DNA from: Bradymonadia bacterium | GTDB taxonomy: Bacteria; Myxococcota_A; Bradymonadia; UBA7976; UBA1532 | NCBI GenBank assembly: GCA_046290225.1 | Contig: JBKAGE010000034.1 | Coordinates: 256,001-320,000, forward strand | Direction: 5' to 3' | Length of the DNA stretch: 64,000 bases | In this document: one piece after another, positions 7,588 through 26,363 of the stretch | How positions within the stretch are numbered: the stretch's first letter is position 1 | Layout: each line of letters starts with the position of its first letter | Position numbers and translations under genes: made by a program | The notes under the pieces: model-generated | What the model was told of the DNA's origin: nothing | The model's database searches: none | Seen by the model: the letters and a program-made list of their open reading frames with translations, nothing else

Positions 7588-8814
7588 ATGGCGACTTACG
7601 ATTTCAAAGGTCTCGACAAGCGAGGCAAAGAGGTCAGCGGGGTCCGCGAGGCCGAGAACGAGAAGGCCCTGCGGCAGCTGCTCAAGAAGGAAGGCATCTT
7701 CCTCACCAAGGTGGGCAAGGGCGGCAAGAAGGGCGGCAGCTTCCTCTCGGCGGAGGTCGACTTCGCCCAGATGTTCGAGAAGATCAACGGCCAGGACATC
7801 GCCATCCTGACCCGGCAGCTCGCCACCCTGCTCAAGGCCAGCATCCCCGTCGTCGACGCCCTCGGGGCCTGCGTCGAGCAGGTGGAGAAGCCCAAGCTGC
7901 GCAAGGTGGTCAGCCAGCTGCGCCAGGAGGTGAACGAAGGCACCAGCCTCGCCACCGCCCTCGAACAGCACCCCGACATCTTCAGCCCCATCTTCCCCAA
8001 CATGGTGAAGTCGGGCGAAGCCAGCGGCACCCTCGACGACGTGCTCATGCGCCTCGCGGAGTTCACCGAAGCCCAGGTGAAGCTCAACCAGAAGGTCAAG
8101 AGCGCGATGACCTATCCGGTCATCATGGTGGGCATCGGCGCGTTGATCCTCGCGGGTATGTTCGCCTACGTGATCCCGCAGATCACGCAGATCTTCGAAG
8201 ACACGGGGCAGGAGCTGCCCTGGATCACGAACGCCCTCATCAGCGTCAGCAACGGCTTCCGGTCATACTGGTGGGTGGGCCTGCTGATGGCCTTTGGCGG
8301 CATGACCATGTTCCGCCGCTGGAAGGCCACCAAGAACGGCGCCCTCAAATGGGACGAGATCAAGCTCAAGCTCCCAGTCTTCGGGCAGCTCACCTTGATG
8401 GTGGCCATCGGACGCTTCACCAAGACTCTGGGCACCCTGCTGCGCTCCGGCGTGCCATTGCTCACCGCCCTGGACATCACCAAGAACGTGCTGGGCAACC
8501 GGGTGCTCATCGAGATCATCAGCGACGCCCAGGTGGCCGTGAAAGAAGGCTCCAGCCTCTCGATCACGCTCAAAAAGAGCGGGCGCTTCCCGCCCATCGT
8601 CACCAACATGATCGCCATCGGTGAGCGCTCCGGCGCTCTGGAAGACATGCTCAACGTCGTGGCTGAAGCCTACGAGAGCCAGGTCGAGGGGCGCATCGCC
8701 GCCCTCACCAGCCTGCTCGAGCCGGTCATGATCGTGGGCATGGGCGTCACCATCGGCATCATCGTCTTTGCGGTGCTCATGCCGATCCTGCAGCTCAACG
8801 AGTTCGTCAGTTGA
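7588..8814 (+). CDS. gspF: Type II secretion inner-membrane platform protein GspF
   Basis: Two T2SSF repeats (TRQLATLLKAS, GEASGTLD, GERSGALEDML, LLEP) and 3 TM segments. Confidence 0.95.
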   Translation: MATYDFKGLDKRGKEVSGVREAENEKALRQLLKKEGIFLTKVGKGGKKGGSFLSAEVDFAQMFEKINGQDIAILTRQLATLLKASIPVVDALGACVEQVEKPKLRKVVSQLRQEVNEGTSLATALEQHPDIFSPIFPNMVKSGEASGTLDDVLMRLAEFTEAQVKLNQKVKSAMTYPVIMVGIGALILAGMFAYVIPQITQIFEDTGQELPWITNALISVSNGFRSYWWVGLLMAFGGMTMFRRWKATKNGALKWDEIKLKLPVFGQLTLMVAIGRFTKTLGTLLRSGVPLLTALDITKNVLGNRVLIEIISDAQVAVKEGSSLSITLKKSGRFPPIVTNMIAIGERSGALEDMLNVVAEAYESQVEGRIAALTSLLEPVMIVGMGVTIGIIVFAVLMPILQLNEFVS

Positions 8815-9929
8815 AGTGGCTCAACCTCCTCGTCGATCGGCGGGTGGCCCTCCTCGTGGGTGGGTCCGCTCTGCTGCTCGACTTGCTCTCCAAAGAGCTG
8901 GTGACCACCCTGCTGCCCGAGGGCAGCCAGGTCACCGCCGGGCCGCTGATGATTCAGCACGCCCGGAACCCGGGCGTGGCCCTGGGCACCTTTGGTGGGC
9001 TCTCCGAGGGGGTGCGCATGTCGCTCGTGGTGGTGGGCATGCTGGTGGCGCTCTTCGTGGCCCTGCCCTGGCTCGCCCGACGTCTGCGGGCGGGGGCGCT
9101 GAAGCAGACCGCCGTGGCCCTGGTGATCACCGGCGCCATCGGCAACTTCGCCGATCGGCTGCGCTACGGCTCAGTCATCGACTTCATCGGTCTCGATCCG
9201 GCGCTGGGTATCCCTTCTCCGGTGTTCAACCTCGCCGACGTAGCCATCGTCGTCGGCGCGGCGCTGTTGCTGTGGGGCCCCAAGCGCACGGGGCCTGGCC
9301 GCGGCCAGCCGCTGCCTCAGGATTCGTGGCCGGGCATTTCGGAGAGCAATCCCGGTACTCAAGACTCTTCCTGGACGATCATCGCCGTGCGCCGCGCCCC
9401 CACCAAAGAGGTGGTGGCCTCGTCGATCAAGCTGCTGGGCGTGCTGCTCGCGGTCAGCGTGGCCCTCGGCGCCCCCAAGGCTCAGGCGCAGGGCGACGCT
9501 CAGGCAGGCCAGGTGGCCTCGATGAACGCCCAGATGCGCATGATCCGGCAGGCCGTGCAGGCCTACCACCTGCAGCACAAGCGTCACCCCGAGCAGCTCG
9601 AGGCCCTCGCCTCGCCGCCGGAGGGTCAACCATTTCTGAAAGCCCAGCACCTGATCGACCCGTGGGGCATCCCCTACACGTACCAGGTCCGTGGCGAAGC
9701 CCTCGACATCATCAGCGCCGGACACGATGGCAAGCTCGGCTCCGACGACGACGTGATGCTCGTGGGCAACACCTTGAAGCACCAGGGCCCCATCGACTTC
9801 AGCCCGCGCCCCGCCCCCAAGAAGAGCAACACCCTGCCCCTGGCCCTCATCGGGGGCTTCACCGTGGTGTCTCTCGTGGCCTGGCGCATGCTGCTGGCGA
9901 AGAAAGCGAAGGCCGATGCCCTGGCTTGA
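8811..9929 (+). CDS. lspA: Lipoprotein signal peptidase II fused to a GspG-type pseudopilin head with a C-terminal TM anchor
   Basis: TTG start overlapping the gspF stop. LspA motifs DLLSK, NPGVALG, GAIGNFADR, GSVIDF, VFNLAD. Then a hydrophobic segment ending AQA-Q, a GspG head (IDPWGIPYTY…IISAGHDGKLGSDDD) and a TM helix with a basic tail. Confidence 0.85.
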   Translation: MKWLNLLVDRRVALLVGGSALLLDLLSKELVTTLLPEGSQVTAGPLMIQHARNPGVALGTFGGLSEGVRMSLVVVGMLVALFVALPWLARRLRAGALKQTAVALVITGAIGNFADRLRYGSVIDFIGLDPALGIPSPVFNLADVAIVVGAALLLWGPKRTGPGRGQPLPQDSWPGISESNPGTQDSSWTIIAVRRAPTKEVVASSIKLLGVLLAVSVALGAPKAQAQGDAQAGQVASMNAQMRMIRQAVQAYHLQHKRHPEQLEALASPPEGQPFLKAQHLIDPWGIPYTYQVRGEALDIISAGHDGKLGSDDDVMLVGNTLKHQGPIDFSPRPAPKKSNTLPLALIGGFTVVSLVAWRMLLAKKAKADALA

Positions 9930-9962
9930 TCATCTCTGCTCGGCGCGCCACCTCTCAGAGGC

Positions 9963-10026
9963 GGCGATTCTGGCAACTGAACCCCGCCAAACTGACACAT
10001 GCCCTCGCATTCACGTCAATTTGGCA
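9963..10026. promoter_or_regulatory. Putative regulator boxes upstream of gspG
   Basis: CGCCA-AAC-TGACA (9985-9997), CGTCA-ATT-TGGCA (10014-10026) and GGCGA-TTC-TGGCA (9963-9975) resemble the boxes at 881-937. They sit in an AT-richer 206-bp gap. Confidence 0.45.
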
Positions 10027-10135
10027 AAGCGAACCATCTGATATCAAAAGAGGAATCAACATCCTCTCCCAAGCGATTGAGTCCAGTGAGAACGGGGCGG
10101 AGCACCTCACATCACTGGGCCAGAAGGAGGTAACC

Positions 10136-10612
10136 ATGAACTTCAATCGGTCCCGTTGGGCACGTCTTCTCCCCCAGCGCACTGCTGCGCGTCTGCAGGC
10201 TCGTCAGGGCGAGGCCCCCATGGCCGCCCGTCGTCGCCAGAAGGGTATGACCCTCCTGGAGATCATGATCGTGATCACCCTCATCGGGGTGGTCATGGCG
10301 GTGGTGGTGACCAACGTCATCGGCGCCGGCGACAACGCCAAGATCTCCGCGGCGAAGACCAAGATGCAGAGCATCAAGCAGCAGGTGGACATGTACTACA
10401 CGATGTTCGACGAGTACCCGGACAACCTCCAGGCCCTCGTCAAGCCCCCCGCTGGTCGCAAGCCCCTCATGAACAAGAACGGGCTCAAGGACCCCTGGGG
10501 CAAGAAGTTCAACTACAGCAACCGCGATGGCGACATCCAGCTCAGCAGCTCGGGCCCCGACCGCAAGGAAGGCACCCAGGATGACATCAAGTTCGGCGGT
10601 GAGGAGCAATAA
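10136..10612 (+). CDS. gspG: Major pseudopilin GspG
   Basis: Strong RBS AAGGAGG before ATG 10136 (3' part of the 8768..10612 ORF). Prepilin site KG|MTLLE, KDPWGKKFNY and the C-terminal SSGPDRKEGTQDD loop. Confidence 0.9.
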   Translation: MNFNRSRWARLLPQRTAARLQARQGEAPMAARRRQKGMTLLEIMIVITLIGVVMAVVVTNVIGAGDNAKISAAKTKMQSIKQQVDMYYTMFDEYPDNLQALVKPPAGRKPLMNKNGLKDPWGKKFNYSNRDGDIQLSSSGPDRKEGTQDDIKFGGEEQ

Positions 10613-10703
10613 AGGCCTGAGATAGGCCCCTGGGGCCCTCTGCGTCGAACGCGCGCCATCGTTTCACACATCCGCAGTGTGCGGATAGAGGAGGAAGCAG
10701 GAG

Positions 10704-11123
10704 ATGGGCAGGTTCAACACGCAGAGGCGCCTCGACGCGAGGAAGCGGCATCCCAAGGGATACAGCTTGATCGAGATCCTGGTGGTCATCTCACTCATCG
10801 GTGTGGTGATGGCCATCACAGTGACCAACGTGATCTCGCTGATCGATGAGGCGAACATCAAGGCCACAAAGGTCAAAATCAAGCAGGTGGCTGACCAGGT
10901 GGTCCAACACCGGGTCATTCACGACGAGTACCCCGGGCGCCTGGAAGACAAGGTGCGCCGCCCGAACGGGCGATCCGGGCCGATGAAGGCCGACGCGCTC
11001 AAGGACGCCTGGAAAAACCCCTGGGCATACAAGAGCGGCGAGCGTGACTTTGATTTGAGCAGCGCCGGGGTCGATGAAGACCACGGTACTGAAGACGACA
11101 TTCACCACGACGAGGACACCTGA
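10704..11123 (+). CDS. gspG: Second GspG-like pseudopilin
   Basis: RBS AGGAG. KG|YSLIE prepilin site, an N-terminal helix similar to the preceding GspG, KDAWKNPWAY and SAGVDEDHGTEDD. Confidence 0.85.
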   Translation: MGRFNTQRRLDARKRHPKGYSLIEILVVISLIGVVMAITVTNVISLIDEANIKATKVKIKQVADQVVQHRVIHDEYPGRLEDKVRRPNGRSGPMKADALKDAWKNPWAYKSGERDFDLSSAGVDEDHGTEDDIHHDEDT

Positions 11124-18802: not shown

Positions 18803-18866
18803 GAGCGGACGGCGCGCTTTGGCACCGCGGAGCTACAGGCGGTGCCAAAGGCACGGCCGTCCGCTC
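18803..18866. terminator. Long inverted repeat between convergent gspN and slt
   Basis: GAGCGGACGGC/GCCGTCCGCTC (11 bp) encloses CTTTGGCACCGC/GCGGTGCCAAAG (12 bp). No U-tract. Confidence 0.55.
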
Positions 18867-21579
18867 AGAAGTTGATATTATCCCGAAAGTTCGGATCGAG
18901 CTGCTGGCCCACCTCGAACCTGATCTCCCGATCGTAAATCCGGCGGTACAACGCGAGGTACTGAAGCACTCGCTTGGTGTACCTGCGCGTCTCCGGATAC
19001 GGGATCTCTTCGACGAACTCGTCCATGTTGATGTGGCCCTTCGCCTTGAGCCACGCTGCCACCCGGTGGGGCCCGGCGTTGTAGCTGGCGATGGCCAGGG
19101 GCAGCTGCCCGTTGAACTTGGTGAGCAGCTGGTTGAAGTACCAGCCACCGAGCTCCAGGGCCACCTCGGGCTCGAGCAACATGGCCGGGCCGAAATTGCG
19201 CATGCCCATGCGATCCGCCACCAGACGCCCCGTGAAGGGCATCACCTGCATCAGGCCTCTGGCACCAGCGTGACTGATCGCCAGGGGGTTGTAGGCCGAC
19301 TCCACGGTCATCAGGGACCACAGGAAGTACGGATCGAGGCCGTAGCGGGCGGCGGTGTGCTCCACGATGGGGCGGAACGCCTGACGGAACATGTTGGCCC
19401 AGGCGGGGTTGTGCTCCTCTGACTCTGGAAGCCCCACCAGGGTGCCCTTCTTGTTGAAGTAGCGTCGGGCGTAGTAGGCGTCACCAATGCACTGGATATA
19501 GGCCGAGCGCATCATCCCGTAGATGGGGCTGCTCAGCAGCTTGGCGAGGGCCTGGCCCCTGCGGGCATCCGCAGCGGGTCGGGGTGTATCGCTGAGATCA
19601 CGACCCCACTCACCGAGGGTGACGTCCCGTCGGCGATCAGCATAGGGCTCTGGACGCCAGGCCCAGCGCTTGGCGCTGCGTCGCTTGCGGCGATACTTGC
19701 GAAAGTCTGCCAGCTCGTCGCTCACCCGGTGCAGCGCCCCTCTGGCGGCCCAGAGCTCCCCCGTGAGCACCAGCTGGTGGGCCCGTTGCAAGTCGGGCAA
19801 CACCCCCCCGTACCGACGAATCAGCCGCTCGAAGGCCGTGAGGCCCTCTTCCGTGGGCAGATGGGTCGAGCCTGGGGGCGGGGCCTCCACGAGCACAGGG
19901 GCGAGCAGCGGGCCATCGTCGATCTCGGGCTGTGAGGTTGCCCGTGCCTGAGCGAGGGTCTGTTGCTGGCAATCGTCGTCATCTTCGCGGCACGTGGGCG
20001 CTGCCGGGATGTCGTCACTCGTACCGCCGCCATCAGGATCGACGTCGCCTGTGGCAAGGGGGCCTTCTGCGGGGCTCATGCCCAGCTCGGCGAGGCGGGC
20101 CCGTGACTGATAGGCATAGTACGACACGGGGGTGGACGCGATGACCTCGCGGTAGGCCTCCGCCGCGGTGTCCACCTCACCGGCCTGGGCCATGGCCCGG
20201 CCATACCAGTAAGTGAACTTTTCCGGCCAGCGGGTGCCCGATCGCAGCTGCGCGAAGGTGTCGGCGGCTTCGAGATACTCACCGAGCTGGAAGCTGCTCC
20301 AGGCCCTGAGCCAGCGGGTCCCGCCGCTGAACTCTCCCCCTCGGCGGCTCAGCAAGGCGAAGTGCTCTCTGGCCTTCATGTACTCGGCCGCGTTGAAGTA
20401 GAGCCAGGCCACGTCTTCGAGCAGCTCGCTCGGCAGGCGCTCGGGGTTGCCCGCAGAGGCCTTGAGGGCAGCCACAGCCTCTTTGGTCTTGCCCATCTTC
20501 TCGAGCACATAGCTCTGCCAGCGCAGCGACTGTCGACGGTGACCCTCGATGGTGGCGCTCTGCCCCCAGGCCTTGAAGGCCGCCAGGGCGTCATCGTAGC
20601 GCTCCATCTGGTAGAGCGTTCGGGCCATCTGATAGCGGGCCTTGCGCTTAAGGGCGGACTTGGCCTTGGGGTGCTCAGCGACCTCGCCGAGCACCTTCAA
20701 GGCCCGCTCGAAGAACTTCTGGCGTCGAAGCTTGTAGCCCACCTCGTACAGCGTGTCTGGGCTCGCCGCGGGCACCGAGATGCCCTGGGCCTCGAGGGCC
20801 TCAAGCGATCGACGGGCCACGAGGGCCAGCGGATCGCCTGGGTGCTGACGCACGACCTGACTGAGCACTCCGGCCACCTTGCTCAGCCGACCGCGGGCGC
20901 GCTCTCCTTCGGCGATGGCCATGAGCGCAGCGGCCTGATGGGGGTACTCCGGGTAAGTGTCGAGCAGGCTTCGCAGCCGACGGATCCCTTCGCGGTGCTT
21001 CCCTTGGCCCAGCAGACAGTCAGCGACGCGAAAGCGCGCCCGGTGGGCCCACTGGGAGGCCGAGTTCACCTTGATCAGCTTCTCAAAGAGCTTCTCTGCG
21101 GCGCCATATCGCCCCTGGTGAAATGTGCTCTCGGCCTCGAAGAAGCGCAAGCGATCGGCAAAGGCGGGTTTGAGCGCAGCAGCCGCCTTGAGATCAGCCA
21201 CAGCGAGGGCATATCGCCCGAGGCGGTACCGCGCCATGCCCCGAACAGCCCTCAGCAACGCGTAGTCGGCGCTCCCCTTCTTCACCCCTGCCAGCGCCTG
21301 AGTGGCCTTCTGCTCTGCTGTCAGGGGCTCACCTGCGGAGCGACCCACCTCGGCCACCAGCGGGCTGAATTTGGGGTACTTCACCACCCCCGGCCACTGT
21401 GCGTCGGTGATCTGGCCTTCGAGCGCGGGCCGGGCAGACTGTCGTTGATTGGGCGCCTTGCGGGCAGGCGACGTAGAGTCTCCATCGGCATGAGCCGGTA
21501 CGGACTGGGTCGACCATGCCGTGATCACGAGGATCAGGGAGATGCTCAAACGGGCGAGATCGTGGGGTGTGCGGATCAC
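18865..21579 (-). CDS. slt: Soluble lytic transglycosylase (Slt family) with TPR repeats
   Basis: Signal peptide (AHA-D), TPR array, catalytic TVES, GLMQ, SYNAG, EEIPYPETRRY. RBS GAGGAG before GTG 21579. Confidence 0.9.
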   Translation of the reverse strand: MIRTPHDLARLSISLILVITAWSTQSVPAHADGDSTSPARKAPNQRQSARPALEGQITDAQWPGVVKYPKFSPLVAEVGRSAGEPLTAEQKATQALAGVKKGSADYALLRAVRGMARYRLGRYALAVADLKAAAALKPAFADRLRFFEAESTFHQGRYGAAEKLFEKLIKVNSASQWAHRARFRVADCLLGQGKHREGIRRLRSLLDTYPEYPHQAAALMAIAEGERARGRLSKVAGVLSQVVRQHPGDPLALVARRSLEALEAQGISVPAASPDTLYEVGYKLRRQKFFERALKVLGEVAEHPKAKSALKRKARYQMARTLYQMERYDDALAAFKAWGQSATIEGHRRQSLRWQSYVLEKMGKTKEAVAALKASAGNPERLPSELLEDVAWLYFNAAEYMKAREHFALLSRRGGEFSGGTRWLRAWSSFQLGEYLEAADTFAQLRSGTRWPEKFTYWYGRAMAQAGEVDTAAEAYREVIASTPVSYYAYQSRARLAELGMSPAEGPLATGDVDPDGGGTSDDIPAAPTCREDDDDCQQQTLAQARATSQPEIDDGPLLAPVLVEAPPPGSTHLPTEEGLTAFERLIRRYGGVLPDLQRAHQLVLTGELWAARGALHRVSDELADFRKYRRKRRSAKRWAWRPEPYADRRRDVTLGEWGRDLSDTPRPAADARRGQALAKLLSSPIYGMMRSAYIQCIGDAYYARRYFNKKGTLVGLPESEEHNPAWANMFRQAFRPIVEHTAARYGLDPYFLWSLMTVESAYNPLAISHAGARGLMQVMPFTGRLVADRMGMRNFGPAMLLEPEVALELGGWYFNQLLTKFNGQLPLAIASYNAGPHRVAAWLKAKGHINMDEFVEEIPYPETRRYTKRVLQYLALYRRIYDREIRFEVGQQLDPNFRDNINF

Positions 21580-21637
21580 CAAATCTCCTCAGAGTGTGCC
21601 GCTGGTCACAGGTAGAAAAGCGCGGCATCTCTCTGAA

Positions 21638-21814
21638 TCAGATCAGATCATCGCCCTCGTCGTCCAGTCCAGCGCCGATCAAGTCGCTCTGGCCGGCCTT
21701 GATGCCCGCCTTTCGGCCAAAGATGAAGCCGATGATGCCGCCCACGAGCAGGATGAACGGGATGTAGACAATGTGCGTCGGGGTCGGGGTACCAAAGAAC
21801 TCCACTTCACCCAT
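21638..21814 (-). CDS. Small membrane protein (58 aa) at the end of the ccm operon, absent from the ORF track
   Basis: My translation: MGEVEFFGTPTPTHIVYIPFILLVGGIIGFIFGRKAGIKAGQSDLIGAGLDDEGDDLI. TGATG overlap with the upstream gene, RBS GGAGG, typical GC3 codons. Confidence 0.75.
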   Translation of the reverse strand: MGEVEFFGTPTPTHIVYIPFILLVGGIIGFIFGRKAGIKAGQSDLIGAGLDDEGDDLI

Positions 21815-22203
21815 CACACACCTCCTTCATCGTCGAGCGCGTTGAGGCGCTTGCGCAAATCATTCAGCTCCTGGGCGGTGCTCTGCTGCTTGCTCCAGGT
21901 GCGCCAGATGAAGCCGAAGACCAGAATCCAGATGGCGGCGTAGGCGATCCAGAGGTTGCGGTACTTCATGTCTTCGTTCGAAGACGTGCCCTTGAAGCTC
22001 GCAGGCTTCGTGTAGCCATCGCCGGCGGCCTGCCCCGAGGCAGAACCCTCCGCAGAACCCTCTGACGTGGCTGCAGCAGCGGGCGTATCCTGGGCCCACG
22101 CCTGCCCCACGGGGGCCATCAGCCCCAGGGCCATGGTGAGGACGATGCCTCGGAGAGAGAGGCTCCACAGGTGGGAAGACTGTGCGCGACGCTTGATCAT
22201 CAA
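21814..22203 (-). CDS. ccmD: CcmD-family protein with N-terminal signal-peptide extension
   Basis: Follows ccmC. C-terminal LWIAYAAIWILVFGFIW TM plus a coiled-coil tail. N-terminal AWA-Q signal peptide. Confidence 0.7.
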   Translation of the reverse strand: MMIKRRAQSSHLWSLSLRGIVLTMALGLMAPVGQAWAQDTPAAAATSEGSAEGSASGQAAGDGYTKPASFKGTSSNEDMKYRNLWIAYAAIWILVFGFIWRTWSKQQSTAQELNDLRKRLNALDDEGGV

Positions 22204-22886
22204 AACACCCCAGCGCGGGCCAGACGGCGCCGCATGGCCTTTATCATGCGCTCATCGACGAGGGCCTTATACCTCAAGCGCAGCAGCAATCCGAACAAGA
22301 GCAACAGGGCCGGCAGCGCCACCCCGTAGAGGGTCATACGCATGTCGGGGCTGATGCCCCCGCCGCCGTTGATGTTGAGCACCTGGGGGTGGTTCCCCCG
22401 CCACATCTTCACCGCGAAGTGCACGAAGAAGATGTTCGGCGCCCCGAAGACCCCGAGCACGGAAGCGAAACGCCGCACGCCGTCACCGGAGCCGCCGAAG
22501 GTGCGGAGCATCCAGTAGGCGGCGAAGATGACCACCATGAGGGCCATGCTGGTGAGGCGGGGCTCCCACTTCCAGTACACCCCCCACACCGGGCGCGCCC
22601 AGAGTGGGCCCGTCACCAACACGATGAGGCCGAAGAGCAGGCCCACCTCTGCAGAGGCCAGAGCGAAGGCGTCGGCCCGGGTGCTGCGCTTCCACAGGTA
22701 GCCCAGGCTGCCTCCGGCGCACAGGATGAAGCCCAGGTAGCACAGCCACGCGCTGCTCACATGGAAGTAGAAGATCTTCTGAATCACCCCCATCGAAGTC
22801 TCCATGGGGGCGACGTTGAACACGAAGTACACCGCCGTGGCAACGGCCAGAGCGCACAGCGCCGTGAGGGCCGGGAATATCTTCAC
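22200..22886 (-). CDS. ccmC: Heme exporter CcmC
   Basis: IFYFHV, TGPLWARPVWGVYWKWEPRLT (WWD domain), second His in FFVHF. Confidence 0.93.
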   Translation of the reverse strand: MKIFPALTALCALAVATAVYFVFNVAPMETSMGVIQKIFYFHVSSAWLCYLGFILCAGGSLGYLWKRSTRADAFALASAEVGLLFGLIVLVTGPLWARPVWGVYWKWEPRLTSMALMVVIFAAYWMLRTFGGSGDGVRRFASVLGVFGAPNIFFVHFAVKMWRGNHPQVLNINGGGGISPDMRMTLYGVALPALLLLFGLLLRLRYKALVDERMIKAMRRRLARAGVF

Positions 22887-23566
22887 TCGATCACCATCCT
22901 CTCGAACAGATAGAGACCGCCGACACCATAGAGGGTGTCGAAGGCGAGGTTCAGCTTCAGCCAGGGGTACGGATCGCTCTCGATGGTGGTGCCCAGCAGG
23001 GCCCCAGTGCCGGCGACCCCCGCAATGAGAACCGGAGAAACCAGGGGGAACACCACCATGGGCAACAACACCTCGGCGAAGCGGGCATTGGTGGCCATCA
23101 CCGCCAGGGGCGTACCCACCACAGCGAAGCCCAGGGCGCCGAGGAGAATCTGTAGCGACAACAAGGCCGCGTGCTCAGTCAGATCGACCTGGAGCAGCAC
23201 CGCGAGCAGTGGGACCACGATGATCATGACGATGAGGATGATCACCAGATTGGTGAGCATCTTCGCCAACAAGATCGCCCCCCGCTCTGCGGGAGACAGG
23301 ATCAGCGCCGTGAAGGCGCCGTCGAGTTGCTCCCGGGCGAAGGTACGCCCCATACCCAGGGTGCCCACGAAGAGCACATTGGCCCAGAGCACACCGGGGA
23401 ACACCTTGGCGTTGGTCTGCGGATCAGACGCGAAGCCAAAGGCGAAGACCAAGGTCATGACGATGCTGAAGAGGAACATCATCGCCAGGGTCTGCTTCGA
23501 TCGCAGCTCGGTGCGCAGATCTTTGGCGAGCACCAGCAACACGGTGGCGGTATAGCCCACGTTCAC
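22883..23566 (-). CDS. ccmB: Heme exporter permease CcmB
   Basis: KDLRTELRSK, PGVLW, FAREQLDG, LLPMVVFPL, about 6 TM. Confidence 0.92.
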   Translation of the reverse strand: MNVGYTATVLLVLAKDLRTELRSKQTLAMMFLFSIVMTLVFAFGFASDPQTNAKVFPGVLWANVLFVGTLGMGRTFAREQLDGAFTALILSPAERGAILLAKMLTNLVIILIVMIIVVPLLAVLLQVDLTEHAALLSLQILLGALGFAVVGTPLAVMATNARFAEVLLPMVVFPLVSPVLIAGVAGTGALLGTTIESDPYPWLKLNLAFDTLYGVGGLYLFERMVIE

Positions 23567-23569
23567 CTC

Positions 23570-24352
23570 TCAGGCCTCCCCTGCAGCAGGCCGAAGGCGG
23601 CCTCTCTTGCGACGAGGCGGCGGGGTGTCGATGCAGCGATGGTAGAGCGCCGTGAGCCCTTCTTCGCCGATGGGGCCGTGATGGACCACGCGACCCTTCC
23701 GCAAGATCAGAGCCCGCGTTGCCAAGCTCTCCGTCGCCACCAGATCGTGACTGCACAGCGCGAGGATGGCCCCAGCCTCGGCTTCGCCCCTGAGCAGCTC
23801 GATGGCGGCCTTCACGCCGTCTCGATCGAGGCCGGTGAAGGGCTCGTCCAGCAGCAACAGGCGTGGGCGATGCATGAGGGCCCTGGCGATGGAGAGCCGC
23901 TGGGCCATGCCGCGACTGAACCCCGCCACTGGGCGATCCATGTCCAGGGCGAGGCCCACACGCTCCAGCCACTCGGGCACGGCCTTCTCGAGATCGGAGA
24001 CGCCACAGATTCGACCGAAGAACACCAGGTTCTCCCGGGCGGTGAGATCCCGATAGAGCATGGTCTGGTGACCCACGTACCCGATGGCCGCTCGAAGATG
24101 AGGCGGGGTGATGCCGGAGATGGCTTCGTCGCCAAAGACGATCTCGCCTTCAGAGGGCCGCGCTCGGGTGGACAGCAGGCTCATCAGGGTGGACTTCCCC
24201 GCGCCGTTGGGCCCCAGGAGCGCCGTGGTCACCCCAGCAGGCAGCTCCGCGGAGACATCGACGAGGGCATAGTGCTCGTCGAACGCCTTGCTCACCCTGG
24301 AGATCGCCACCTGTTCAAAGGCGCCGCTGCGCCCTGGCCTCTGTCCGCTCAC
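23570..24352 (-). CDS. ccmA: Heme ABC exporter ATPase CcmA
   Basis: GPNGAGKST, YVGHQTMLY, FSRGMAQRL, LLLDEPFTGLD. Adjacent to ccmB. Confidence 0.92.
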   Translation of the reverse strand: MSGQRPGRSGAFEQVAISRVSKAFDEHYALVDVSAELPAGVTTALLGPNGAGKSTLMSLLSTRARPSEGEIVFGDEAISGITPPHLRAAIGYVGHQTMLYRDLTARENLVFFGRICGVSDLEKAVPEWLERVGLALDMDRPVAGFSRGMAQRLSIARALMHRPRLLLLDEPFTGLDRDGVKAAIELLRGEAEAGAILALCSHDLVATESLATRALILRKGRVVHHGPIGEEGLTALYHRCIDTPPPRRKRGRLRPAAGEA

Positions 24353-25698
24353 CGGCCATCCAGGCGATCGAGGGCCTTGTAGAGCGACACGAGCCGGGCG
24401 GTGATGGCCTCCTGCTCACGCTCGAAGCGCGCCTGGGAGATGCGCCCCTTCTGCGCCGCCTTGCGCATGCGGGCCAGGGCCCGGAGCAGGCGATCGCGCT
24501 CAGTCTCCAGGTGGGCCCGGGACAGCCGCGTGGTGTCGCCGAGATCTTTGGGGCGCTGGAAGCCAAAGAGCACCAGCAAGGCCAGGCCCCCGATGCTGCT
24601 GAGCATGAGGGTGACGTTGAGGTAGTCCTTCGTGGGCACCCCGGTGATGGCGAACTGGAAGGGCTGATCCGCCTCGAGCATGGCCTCCTGGGCGGAGAGC
24701 TCCCAGAAGCGCTTGCCGCTGCCCATGGTCACGGGGTTGATGGCGCCGATGCCCCGCGTGTCGAGGCCCAGAGGCACGCTGGTCCGCTGACGGGCCTTCT
24801 TGCCCTCCCACTTGTCCCGCCACACGAGGGCGTAGCCGCCAACGGTGCGGATGGGGGCGGACATGGACCATTCGAAGGTGTCGGCCATGCCATAGGGCAC
24901 GGTGTAGTACATGACGAACTGAGCGGCGCCGTCTTCCCCGGGCATCACCGCCCCCTTGAACCAGATCGAGGTGCCCAGGGCTTCGATCATGCGGGCAGGA
25001 GGCTTGTTGCCGTCAGGTCCGTGGACCTCAGGGTGCTTGGCCCCCTCGGGCACCACCAGACGCAGGCCGCCGGCGGGCAGGTTGCCCAGGTTGACCACCT
25101 TGCGCCCACCGTTCATGAGGCTCACGCGGTGGGAGATGAGCAGAGCGTCTTCGAGAGGCTTCACCTCGACGAAGGCGTGCCGCAAGAACAGCTTGGAGGT
25201 GTCGTCGGTGACCTCGGTGAGGGTGACCTCGAGGGCGCCTCCCTCCCCCGCCTGAGGCAGGAGTTTGGTCATGAACGGGAACCGCACCCCGTTGTAGTCC
25301 ACCTGCACCTTGTAGCTGATGAACTGCTGCACCTTGGGGTTGGTGGGGATCCCCTGGAAGGTGACCTTCCCACCCTCTTTGGTGGTGTCGAAGTAGTCTT
25401 TGACCTTGCTGCCCTGGGCCAGAATGGTCACGGAGACCGGCAAGCCTGGGGGCGCCGGCACACGCTGCCCCTCCACATCGATGTAGGCCTCGACGGTGAG
25501 AGGCTGACGCTTCATGGCCCGCAAGAAAGGCGGCAGACCGCTGGCATCCGTCGCCACGTCTTCGATTTTGGGGGTGGGATACTGAGCCGCAGCGGTCCCC
25601 GCCAGCAATGCGCTGAAGCCGAGGGCTGCGACGCACACGCCCAGAGCGCTGCGCAGTCGAGGAGAGCTGAGCCTGGTCTGGAGGCTGAAGATGTTCAT
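24349..25698 (-). CDS. Periplasmic beta-rich protein with C-terminal TM and coiled coil (ccm-associated)
   Basis: Likely start ATG 25698 (RBS GGAGG, overlapping the upstream stop). Signal peptide ending AAA-Q, C-terminal TM, then ERDRLLRALARM helix. Confidence 0.75.
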   Translation of the reverse strand: MNIFSLQTRLSSPRLRSALGVCVAALGFSALLAGTAAAQYPTPKIEDVATDASGLPPFLRAMKRQPLTVEAYIDVEGQRVPAPPGLPVSVTILAQGSKVKDYFDTTKEGGKVTFQGIPTNPKVQQFISYKVQVDYNGVRFPFMTKLLPQAGEGGALEVTLTEVTDDTSKLFLRHAFVEVKPLEDALLISHRVSLMNGGRKVVNLGNLPAGGLRLVVPEGAKHPEVHGPDGNKPPARMIEALGTSIWFKGAVMPGEDGAAQFVMYYTVPYGMADTFEWSMSAPIRTVGGYALVWRDKWEGKKARQRTSVPLGLDTRGIGAINPVTMGSGKRFWELSAQEAMLEADQPFQFAITGVPTKDYLNVTLMLSSIGGLALLVLFGFQRPKDLGDTTRLSRAHLETERDRLLRALARMRKAAQKGRISQARFEREQEAITARLVSLYKALDRLDGR

Positions 25699-26363
25699 GC
25701 GTTGGCCTCCACGGACTGAAGATCGGTCCCACACCGCTTGCAGAACCGGGCACCGGGTCGATTCTCGGTGCCACAGGCTGCACACGAGATCACCTGAGGC
25801 GGCTCGCTCGGTGCACCACACAGATCACAGAACTCACCCTCGACATCTCGCTCACCCCCACACGACCAGCACGTCTTCGTCTGGGCTTGGGGCACGACGG
25901 GCTCTTCGGCCTGAGGCTCGGCCGCCGCCGTCTCAGGCTCAGGTGCCTTCTTCTCGAGTTTGACCTGCTCCGGGGCCGCCTCGGGCGCTTCTGCCTTCTG
26001 CTTCCCCTTGAGCCGGGTGTTCACGTCCGCGTCGATGCGATCCTGGTAGGCCTCACTGGCGGCGTCGATGCGCTCATAGACGGCCATCGCCTCCCGCTCG
26101 TATTTGGCCTTGAGCTGCTTGAGATCCCGGGCGCCGATCTTGTTGAGGGCCGCCTCGAACTCCAGCTCCTTGAGCTCGTCCACGAGGCGATCTCGCTGGG
26201 TGAGCAGCGCCATGGACTCGTCTTCCACCGCCTGCAGATCGTCGACGGTGACCCGCGTGGTGTCGAGGAGCGGCTTGATGGCCTGGTAGATCAGGTACAC
26301 CGTCACCAGCCCCGAGAGCAGGGCGAGCACCTGAAAGCTGAAGAGAGACTGCAGGATAGTCAA
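25695..26363 (-). CDS. Membrane protein with CcmI-like N-terminal helix and double zinc ribbon
   Basis: TM helix, ELKELEFE…KI…D…LKAKYEREA helix, four CxxC motifs (CWSC, CDLC, CAAC, CKRC). Confidence 0.8.
   Translation of the reverse strand: MTILQSLFSFQVLALLSGLVTVYLIYQAIKPLLDTTRVTVDDLQAVEDESMALLTQRDRLVDELKELEFEAALNKIGARDLKQLKAKYEREAMAVYERIDAASEAYQDRIDADVNTRLKGKQKAEAPEAAPEQVKLEKKAPEPETAAAEPQAEEPVVPQAQTKTCWSCGGERDVEGEFCDLCGAPSEPPQVISCAACGTENRPGARFCKRCGTDLQSVEANA

Follow-up and report, generated by a model that had tools for sequence, protein, structure and literature searches.

A second lspA inside a type II secretion operon, read in one genome into an anchored GspG head

Results and discussion

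This bacterium's T2SS (type II secretion system) operon holds a second lspA gene, here called lspA2, which in this genome runs in one frame into a degenerate GspG module. The feature is real in the assembly. Labels of related proteins suggest that the host probably belongs to Myxococcota. The LspA2-GspG module with a C-terminal anchor is a singleton architecture, whereas the conserved feature is lspA2 within the T2SS operon; a more general pattern lies behind the singleton, and it hints at an undescribed link of two machines. The frame and its nearest neighbours in the window (the whole stretch of 64,000 nucleotides that was analysed) are the following:

7588..8814, + strand: gspF (Pfam), with translational coupling to lspA2 in this genome and five relatives
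8811..9929, + strand: 372-residue frame of LspA2, linker and degenerate GspG module (ORF scan, Pfam)
10136..10612, + strand: gspG1, canonical prepilin (Pfam, class III motif)
10704..11123, + strand: gspG2, second canonical prepilin (Pfam, class III motif, tree)

The frame begins with a TTG that overlaps the gspF stop and is open throughout from 8811 to 9929, which bears out the coupling to gspF proposed in a sequence-only reading of this DNA. The operon is complete: two gspC-like genes, gspD, gspE, gspF, the 372-residue frame, gspG1, gspG2, gspH, gspI, gspJ, gspK, gspL, gspM and a gspN-like gene, where the labels gspC, gspH, gspI and gspN are presumed from position and recall. Both gspG1 and gspG2 are sisters in the GspG tree (98/99). 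Most family genomes have a single copy, against the two canonical copies at 10136-11123.

The gspC-like PDZ genes are arranged in tandem at 1117-2879 (n = 2), and the second of them shows a signal-peptide-like beginning and a faint GspD N0-like match (E 0.09). A gene for a sigma-54-type activator, named by eye, is located at 3-818. Directly after the operon, on the minus strand (18865-26363), lie lytic transglycosylase-like and cytochrome c maturation-like genes, also named by eye. The sigma-70 scan gave 0 promoter-like sites, and a sigma-54 reading of an intergenic motif was dropped since inspection showed its spacing to be too long by one base.

The earlier reading had pointed out that no gspO lies in the cluster. 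Indeed no A24 prepilin peptidase is found there, but this is no argument, as two A24 peptidases are encoded on other contigs of the genome. None of the 15 operon genes was found to encode a lipobox protein, so there is no evident LspA2 substrate within the operon.

The LspA2 domain

By every sequence and fold test the N-terminal half is a member of the LspA family, and its enzymatic activity is predicted.

8811..9284, + strand: LspA2 domain, residues 1-158, four-helix signal peptidase II (SPase II; PF01252; aligns to 6ryo, 9emz and 5dir)
9180-9182, + strand: catalytic D124 (LspA alignment)
9237-9239, + strand: catalytic D143 (LspA alignment)

Pfam Peptidase_A8 (PF01252) matches residues 20-155 with 97.5 bits (cut-off 25), and TIGR00077 stays marginally under its threshold (73.7 bits against 73.95). 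All 14 conserved LspA residues, as listed in an excerpt of PMC6952399, are present (D24, K28, N53, G55, G108, N112, D115, R116, V122, D124, F139, N140, A142 and D143) and invariant across the LspA2 alignments, including the Asp dyad D124/D143. The LspA motifs with both catalytic Asp were thus read correctly from the sequence. The alignment-based model reaches a pLDDT of about 80-93 over most of residues 1-158; with Foldseek the LspA2 model matches 6ryo (E 2e-7) and 5dir (E 3e-7), and the four-helix fold with its beta-cradle is seen.

What the earlier reading overlooked is a second lspA in the genome beside lgt (lgt named by eye). As the housekeeping lspA adjoins lgt, the operon copy is an accessory paralog. 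Both copies are 37% identical, and the LspA2 clade is separate from the lgt-linked lspA (support 100/99 in one tree and 87/97 in another). Purifying selection acts on lspA2, with dN/dS values of 0.08-0.30 for three pairs from one genus, against 0.02-0.15 for gspF. At the position of Trp57 in S. aureus the aromatic loop residue is replaced by Leu or Met in 13 of 17 LspA2 sequences (here L58, 8982-8984). A role of LspA2 as GspO substitute was ruled out, given a periplasmic active site (excerpt of PMC6952399) and the A24 peptidases elsewhere in the genome.

The GspG module

The remainder of the frame consists of a linker, a signal-peptide-like segment, a globular head and a C-terminal helix.

9285..9386, + strand: cytoplasmic linker, residues 159-192, predicted to be disordered (pLDDT, GC3, frame shared with the tails of P0003 and P0004)
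9387..9488, + strand: signal-peptide-like segment, residues 193-226, with GTG 9387 as a possible internal start (profile alignment, SD duplex)
9498..9764, + strand: GspG globular head, residues 230-318 (PF08334; fold matches)
9840..9929, + strand: C-terminal membrane helix (residues 344-362), basic tail and stop (hydropathy; contigs from two other studies span the stop)

The head is confirmed by a T2SSG match (PF08334) at residues 230-318 with 52.2 bits (cut-off 21), and a model with pLDDT near 95 whose fold matches 3g20, 3gn9 and 5o2y. Likewise, the C-terminal membrane helix with basic tail that had been read from the letters coincides with a hydropathy peak at 344-362, followed by basic residues. 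Despite its GspG-type head, however, the C-terminal half fails GspG membership on its sequence, as it lacks the class III site and has the extra anchor. According to an excerpt of PMC3244431, the class III motif is [GAS]x4[DE]; in GspG it stands directly before the hydrophobic helix, and in residues 151-235 its sole match is at 224, past the helix. The N_methyl Pfam model has no match in the 372-residue frame, against one each in gspG1 and gspG2; TIGR01710 reaches 42.5 bits against a cut-off of 88.85, and the single N-terminal membrane segment that is a GspG trait is here accompanied by helix 344-362.

The sequence-only reading had considered the class III prepilin helix absent. This holds for the processing site, but the second half of the pilin helix still aligns: residues 206-218 correspond to positions 23-35 of a profile from 23 family GspGs, and a 6-residue insertion carrying A-x-A comes directly afterwards. 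Judged from this alignment, residues 193-226 are a relic of the pilin N-terminal helix that has turned signal-peptide-like and lost the G|FxxxE processing site. Hydropathy peaks at 201-219 and the model shows a helix break at 219-222; the n-, h- and c-regions and the A-x-A pattern are seen by inspection only. Together they mark a candidate SPase I cut between residues 226 and 227.

Ahead of this segment the alignment-based model falls below a pLDDT of 50 (residues 166-198). GC3 amounts to 0.76 in the linker against 0.87-0.94 in the other segments, and is 0.94 after V193. The SD duplex before GTG 9387 has a moderate energy of -7.4 kcal/mol, where the operon genes span -1.5 to -13.1. Because of this SD and the rise in GC3 at the same place, the GspG module could also be translated alone.

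Both LspA termini are cytoplasmic according to an excerpt of PMC8689077. As the next helix (201-219) would run outward from there, the head is predicted to be periplasmic, with helix 344-362 leading back inward. The topology and possible SPase I cut proposed earlier are therefore reasonable. The whole-protein model (pTM 0.51) gives LspA and head no fixed mutual arrangement, and a single-sequence model was too poor to use (pLDDT 45). The anchor differs from a MYXO-CTERM tag, described in an excerpt of PMC11980579 as an invariant Cys motif before a C-terminal helix, in that the protein has no Cys; also, no NCBIfam sorting tag matches the 372-residue protein at E 0.1.

In the GspG tree the module sits unplaced on a long branch (support 36/0), and no close relative of the C-terminal half was found among proteins of 98-314 residues. 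Heads of GspG type with no prepilin site are frequent within the family (L061, L063) and turn up in unrelated proteins as well. L061, L063 and L065 are GspG paralogs in genomes G041, G024 and G023 with a degenerate or missing prepilin motif; the one in G023 sits inside the T2SS operon of that genome.

Distribution in the family

The junction between gspF and gspG is visible in 23 of the 27 other family genomes, and four are not scorable. A stand-alone lspA2 of 175-180 residues lies between gspF and gspG in five of these 23 genomes and is missing in the other 18. The anchored GspG-head module is found in 0 of 23. The genes are kept separate in P0005/P0006 as well. LspA2 was not found outside the host family among 400 phylum genomes, and scans of metagenome and genome contigs returned generic lspA loci only (gspE, gspF, gspG or gspH as a neighbour in 0 of 95).

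A search for the same architecture in relatives, as suggested by the sequence-only reading, thus ends with a single genome. The roles that it proposed for the head (tether, cap or decoy) find no support here: they rest on one genome, as the anchored-head module is missing from the two nearest relatives and from the 23 scorable family genomes. From its distribution the anchored head seems dispensable.

The closest LspA relatives, P0003 and P0004 (81% identical over the LspA domain), allow a more detailed comparison of the region behind LspA2.

9370..9416, + strand: imperfect 47-nucleotide direct repeat, left copy, at the module edge (weak; sequence comparison)
9920..9966, + strand: imperfect 47-nucleotide repeat, right copy, over the stop codon (sequence comparison)
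9956..10072, + strand: non-coding DNA upstream of gspG1, counterpart of the P0003 and P0004 read-through tails

In both proteins the linker is shared up to about residue 197; no GspG head follows, and they end at 217 and 256 residues after reading, each in a different frame, into the non-coding DNA upstream of gspG1. The linker counts 30, 33 and 36 codons between W155 and the DS.W motif in the three close sequences, with the frame kept in all. The back-translated tail of P0004 has its best match at 9956-10072 out of 640 bins. For P0003 the last seven residues have their single best site in the window at 10009-10029, while the whole tail falls outside the top eight bins. On the basis of these tail matches P0003 and P0004 pass from the linker nearly straight into the DNA before gspG1, with the module of 540 bases missing. 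The non-coding motif at 9956-10072 is kept in both loci and is possibly an internal promoter or binding site.

The 47-nucleotide repeat scores as high in 17 of 3000 GC-matched random windows, yet it is unremarkable in a window-wide scan (222 of 2320). A gain of the module in this genome is more parsimonious. The alternative, loss of an older fusion, fits the kept linker frame and the differing junctions of P0003 and P0004.

Independent LspA-prepilin fusions

A protein search over 1.84 billion representatives (150 proteins listed, Pfam run on 15) yielded P0007, in which LspA2 is joined to a complete GspG. Using P0007 as the query, eight of 11 matches have both domains (323-329 residues, 54-74% identical, 16 member sequences from three sources), and a ninth fusion sequence leaves the frame inside the head; as this search excluded proteins shorter than 178 residues, unfused members could not appear. 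P0007 and P0169-P0175 form eight fusion clusters in a sister lineage and a separate LspA2 branch in the tree. The fusion of LspA with GspG, which the sequence-only reading regarded as undescribed, is therefore a recurrent type, but the recurrent members have a normal prepilin and a Cys-containing head and are devoid of the C-terminal anchor. Neither 113 class genomes nor 400 phylum genomes yielded a fusion of this type.

In all nine sequences the class III site is followed by 23-24 uncharged residues. The linker is variable, yet a Met comes shortly after Gly in nine of nine (Gly-Gly in eight), which is the apparent imprint of an internal ribosome site. The family of P0007, P0169-P0175 and P0011 has Thr at +1 and offers a better experimental target than the gene in the window.

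A third combination is P0114, a single Myxococcota record of 452 residues in which an LspA from outside the LspA2 clade is fused to a prepilin (GspI-like by eye). Other joins at LspA include P0008, a tandem double LspA (358 residues, 2 members), and P0141, an LspA-methyltransferase fusion (340 residues). These two show that the LspA C-terminus accepts joins.

Origin of the fusion

We consider it probable that the free C-terminus of lspA2 repeatedly reads into the next pseudopilin gene, that cleavage or an internal start separates the products again, and that the join is tolerated rather than required. A second and putatively catalytically intact lspA would have come to lie between gspF and gspG of the T2SS operon in one family branch, where it most likely adds SPase II capacity for lipoprotein cargo, co-expressed with the T2SS. 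Its stop would be easily lost since the C-terminus is cytoplasmic, is free of constraint and lies right against the beginning of the following gene. In the present genome lspA2 would have read into a degenerate GspG paralog, whose pilin helix may now act like a signal peptide. The product would be a two-protein precursor, resolved by an SPase I cut after A226 or by separate initiation at GTG 9387. The outcome would be a normal LspA2 and a periplasmic GspG head that is held by its C-terminal helix and excluded from the pseudopilus. Such a join may cost little, because two proteins are restored by the class III site in the sister lineage and by an SPase I-type signal or internal start here.

In favour of this read-through are the five stand-alone lspA2 genes against 0 modules in 23 genomes, together with the P0003 and P0004 tails in non-coding DNA, purifying selection on lspA2 and its separate clade, the class III site and the Met behind Gly in the nine sister sequences, the GC3 rise at V193, the cytoplasmic termini of LspA and the other GspG heads that lack a prepilin site. 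Against it, the linker stays in frame in three close sequences despite differences in length, as would suit an older, selected fusion later deleted in P0003 and P0004; across 54-74% identity the sister fusion has remained open, which neutrality explains poorly, although that search covered only proteins of 178 residues or more; the SD at 9387 is only moderate; and LspA2 has no evident substrate in the operon.

Selection for the link between LspA2 and a pseudopilin is a possible though unlikely alternative. Co-synthesis and co-insertion in a 1:1 ratio might be the benefit, or an uncleaved head might park the peptidase at the T2SS. Such selection agrees with the two independent fusions inside a single LspA2 clade and with P0114 as a third, and the sister fusion remains open in eight clusters (16 member sequences) with in-frame linker indels. 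Indeed, a fusion that arose independently two or three times and was long retained in one lineage is more than a one-off accident. Furthermore, the module has a coding-type GC3 (0.87-0.94) with its GspG motifs kept, and T2SSs carry lipid-anchored proteins to the surface (excerpt of PMC11980579). On the other hand, the genes are separate in five family genomes and in P0005/P0006, and P0003 and P0004 have no module. Both fusion types also place a cleavage signal exactly at the join, and the modelled linker is disordered, leaving the domains without a fixed arrangement.

A related proposal, which we hold only tentatively and think unlikely, regards LspA2 as a T2SS-dedicated SPase II that has been made at least twice as one polyprotein with a pseudopilin. 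A membrane protease would then serve as the 'leader peptide' of a prepilin and be freed by the prepilin peptidase in the P0007 lineage, whereas in this genome LspA2 would precede an anchored GspG head with SPase I as the cutter. A complex prediction for LspA2 with gspG1 scored 0.00 (mark 0.32), which says nothing either way.

It is rather improbable that the module is a decaying extra gspG copy without a role and the fusion a transient accident. The cluster of one, the unmatched C-terminal half and the long unplaced branch would agree with decay, as would the module differences in other strains, both of which change a residue compared to one of ten in gspF, albeit in very small numbers. However, 180 codons are open with high GC3 and the head folds confidently; a coherent layout of signal, head and anchor is unlikely to result from decay alone, and two other studies have near-identical strains that contain the 3' end of the module.

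An assembly error that removed a stop or frameshift between two genes is very improbable: the protein is known from one record only and 9285-9410, with the LspA-head junction, is bridged by no contig of the four public runs, but P0003 and P0004 continue stop-free in the same frame through the linker, an identical 372-residue protein is present in NCBI and Logan (a cluster of one, possibly from the same reads), and the remaining operon genes are intact. The four public sequencing runs that were checked contain no more than 12% of the sampled words. The module stop and the DNA behind it are spanned, at 98-99% identity, by two contigs from different studies. Contigs from an RNA run touch gspF and gspG1 only and have no bearing on the expression of the 372-residue frame.

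Comparison with known systems

In the open-access literature searched, we found neither an LspA-GspG fusion nor an lspA within a T2SS operon described. This suggests that both an intact lspA paralog in a T2SS operon and a family joining lspA2 to a cleavable prepilin are apparently undescribed. The exact architecture in this genome teaches little by itself because both domains are well known and the architecture is a singleton. If the link is functional, it would directly connect the maturation of lipoproteins with type II export, either physically or stoichiometrically, and it would mean that a prepilin peptidase can accept a four-helix protease as leader.

Compared to characterised LspA structures (5dir, 6ryo, 9emz), LspA2 has the common fold, the four helices, the 14 conserved residues and the Asp dyad. 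It differs from a typical LspA as an accessory paralog in a T2SS operon, with a C-terminal extension of 214 residues in this genome. In S. aureus, Trp57 clamps globomycin and myxovirescin, whereas the equivalent position is altered in LspA2. With this altered residue and a predicted activity, LspA2 could offer a simple way to study how sensitivity to these antibiotics varies in nature.

Multiple lspA genes are also seen in Myxococcus xanthus, where an excerpt of PMC8689077 places lspA3 and lspA4 in the myxovirescin cluster and lspA1 and lspA2 with lgt. In both organisms lspA is present more than once: one copy adjoins lgt, and another belongs to a specialised cluster. Here, however, that cluster is a T2SS operon rather than one for an antibiotic, and the lspA in it is part of a fusion.

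With GspG, PulG and EpsG the module shares a head with the DPWG and SAG.DG motifs and the second half of the N-terminal helix. It differs by the missing class III site, the 6-residue A-x-A insertion and the added C-terminal helix. The P0007-type fusions resemble the present one in their common LspA2 clade, the in-frame join to GspG and a cleavage signal at the join, but they have a normal prepilin motif and a Cys-containing head without anchor, and form eight clusters on a separate branch.

Similar in layout is the FbcH cytochrome b-c1 precursor of Bradyrhizobium japonicum, a polytopic protein with an internal signal sequence and a C-terminally anchored periplasmic domain, which is cleaved apart. 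The proteins are unrelated, and the two halves of FbcH are subunits of one complex.
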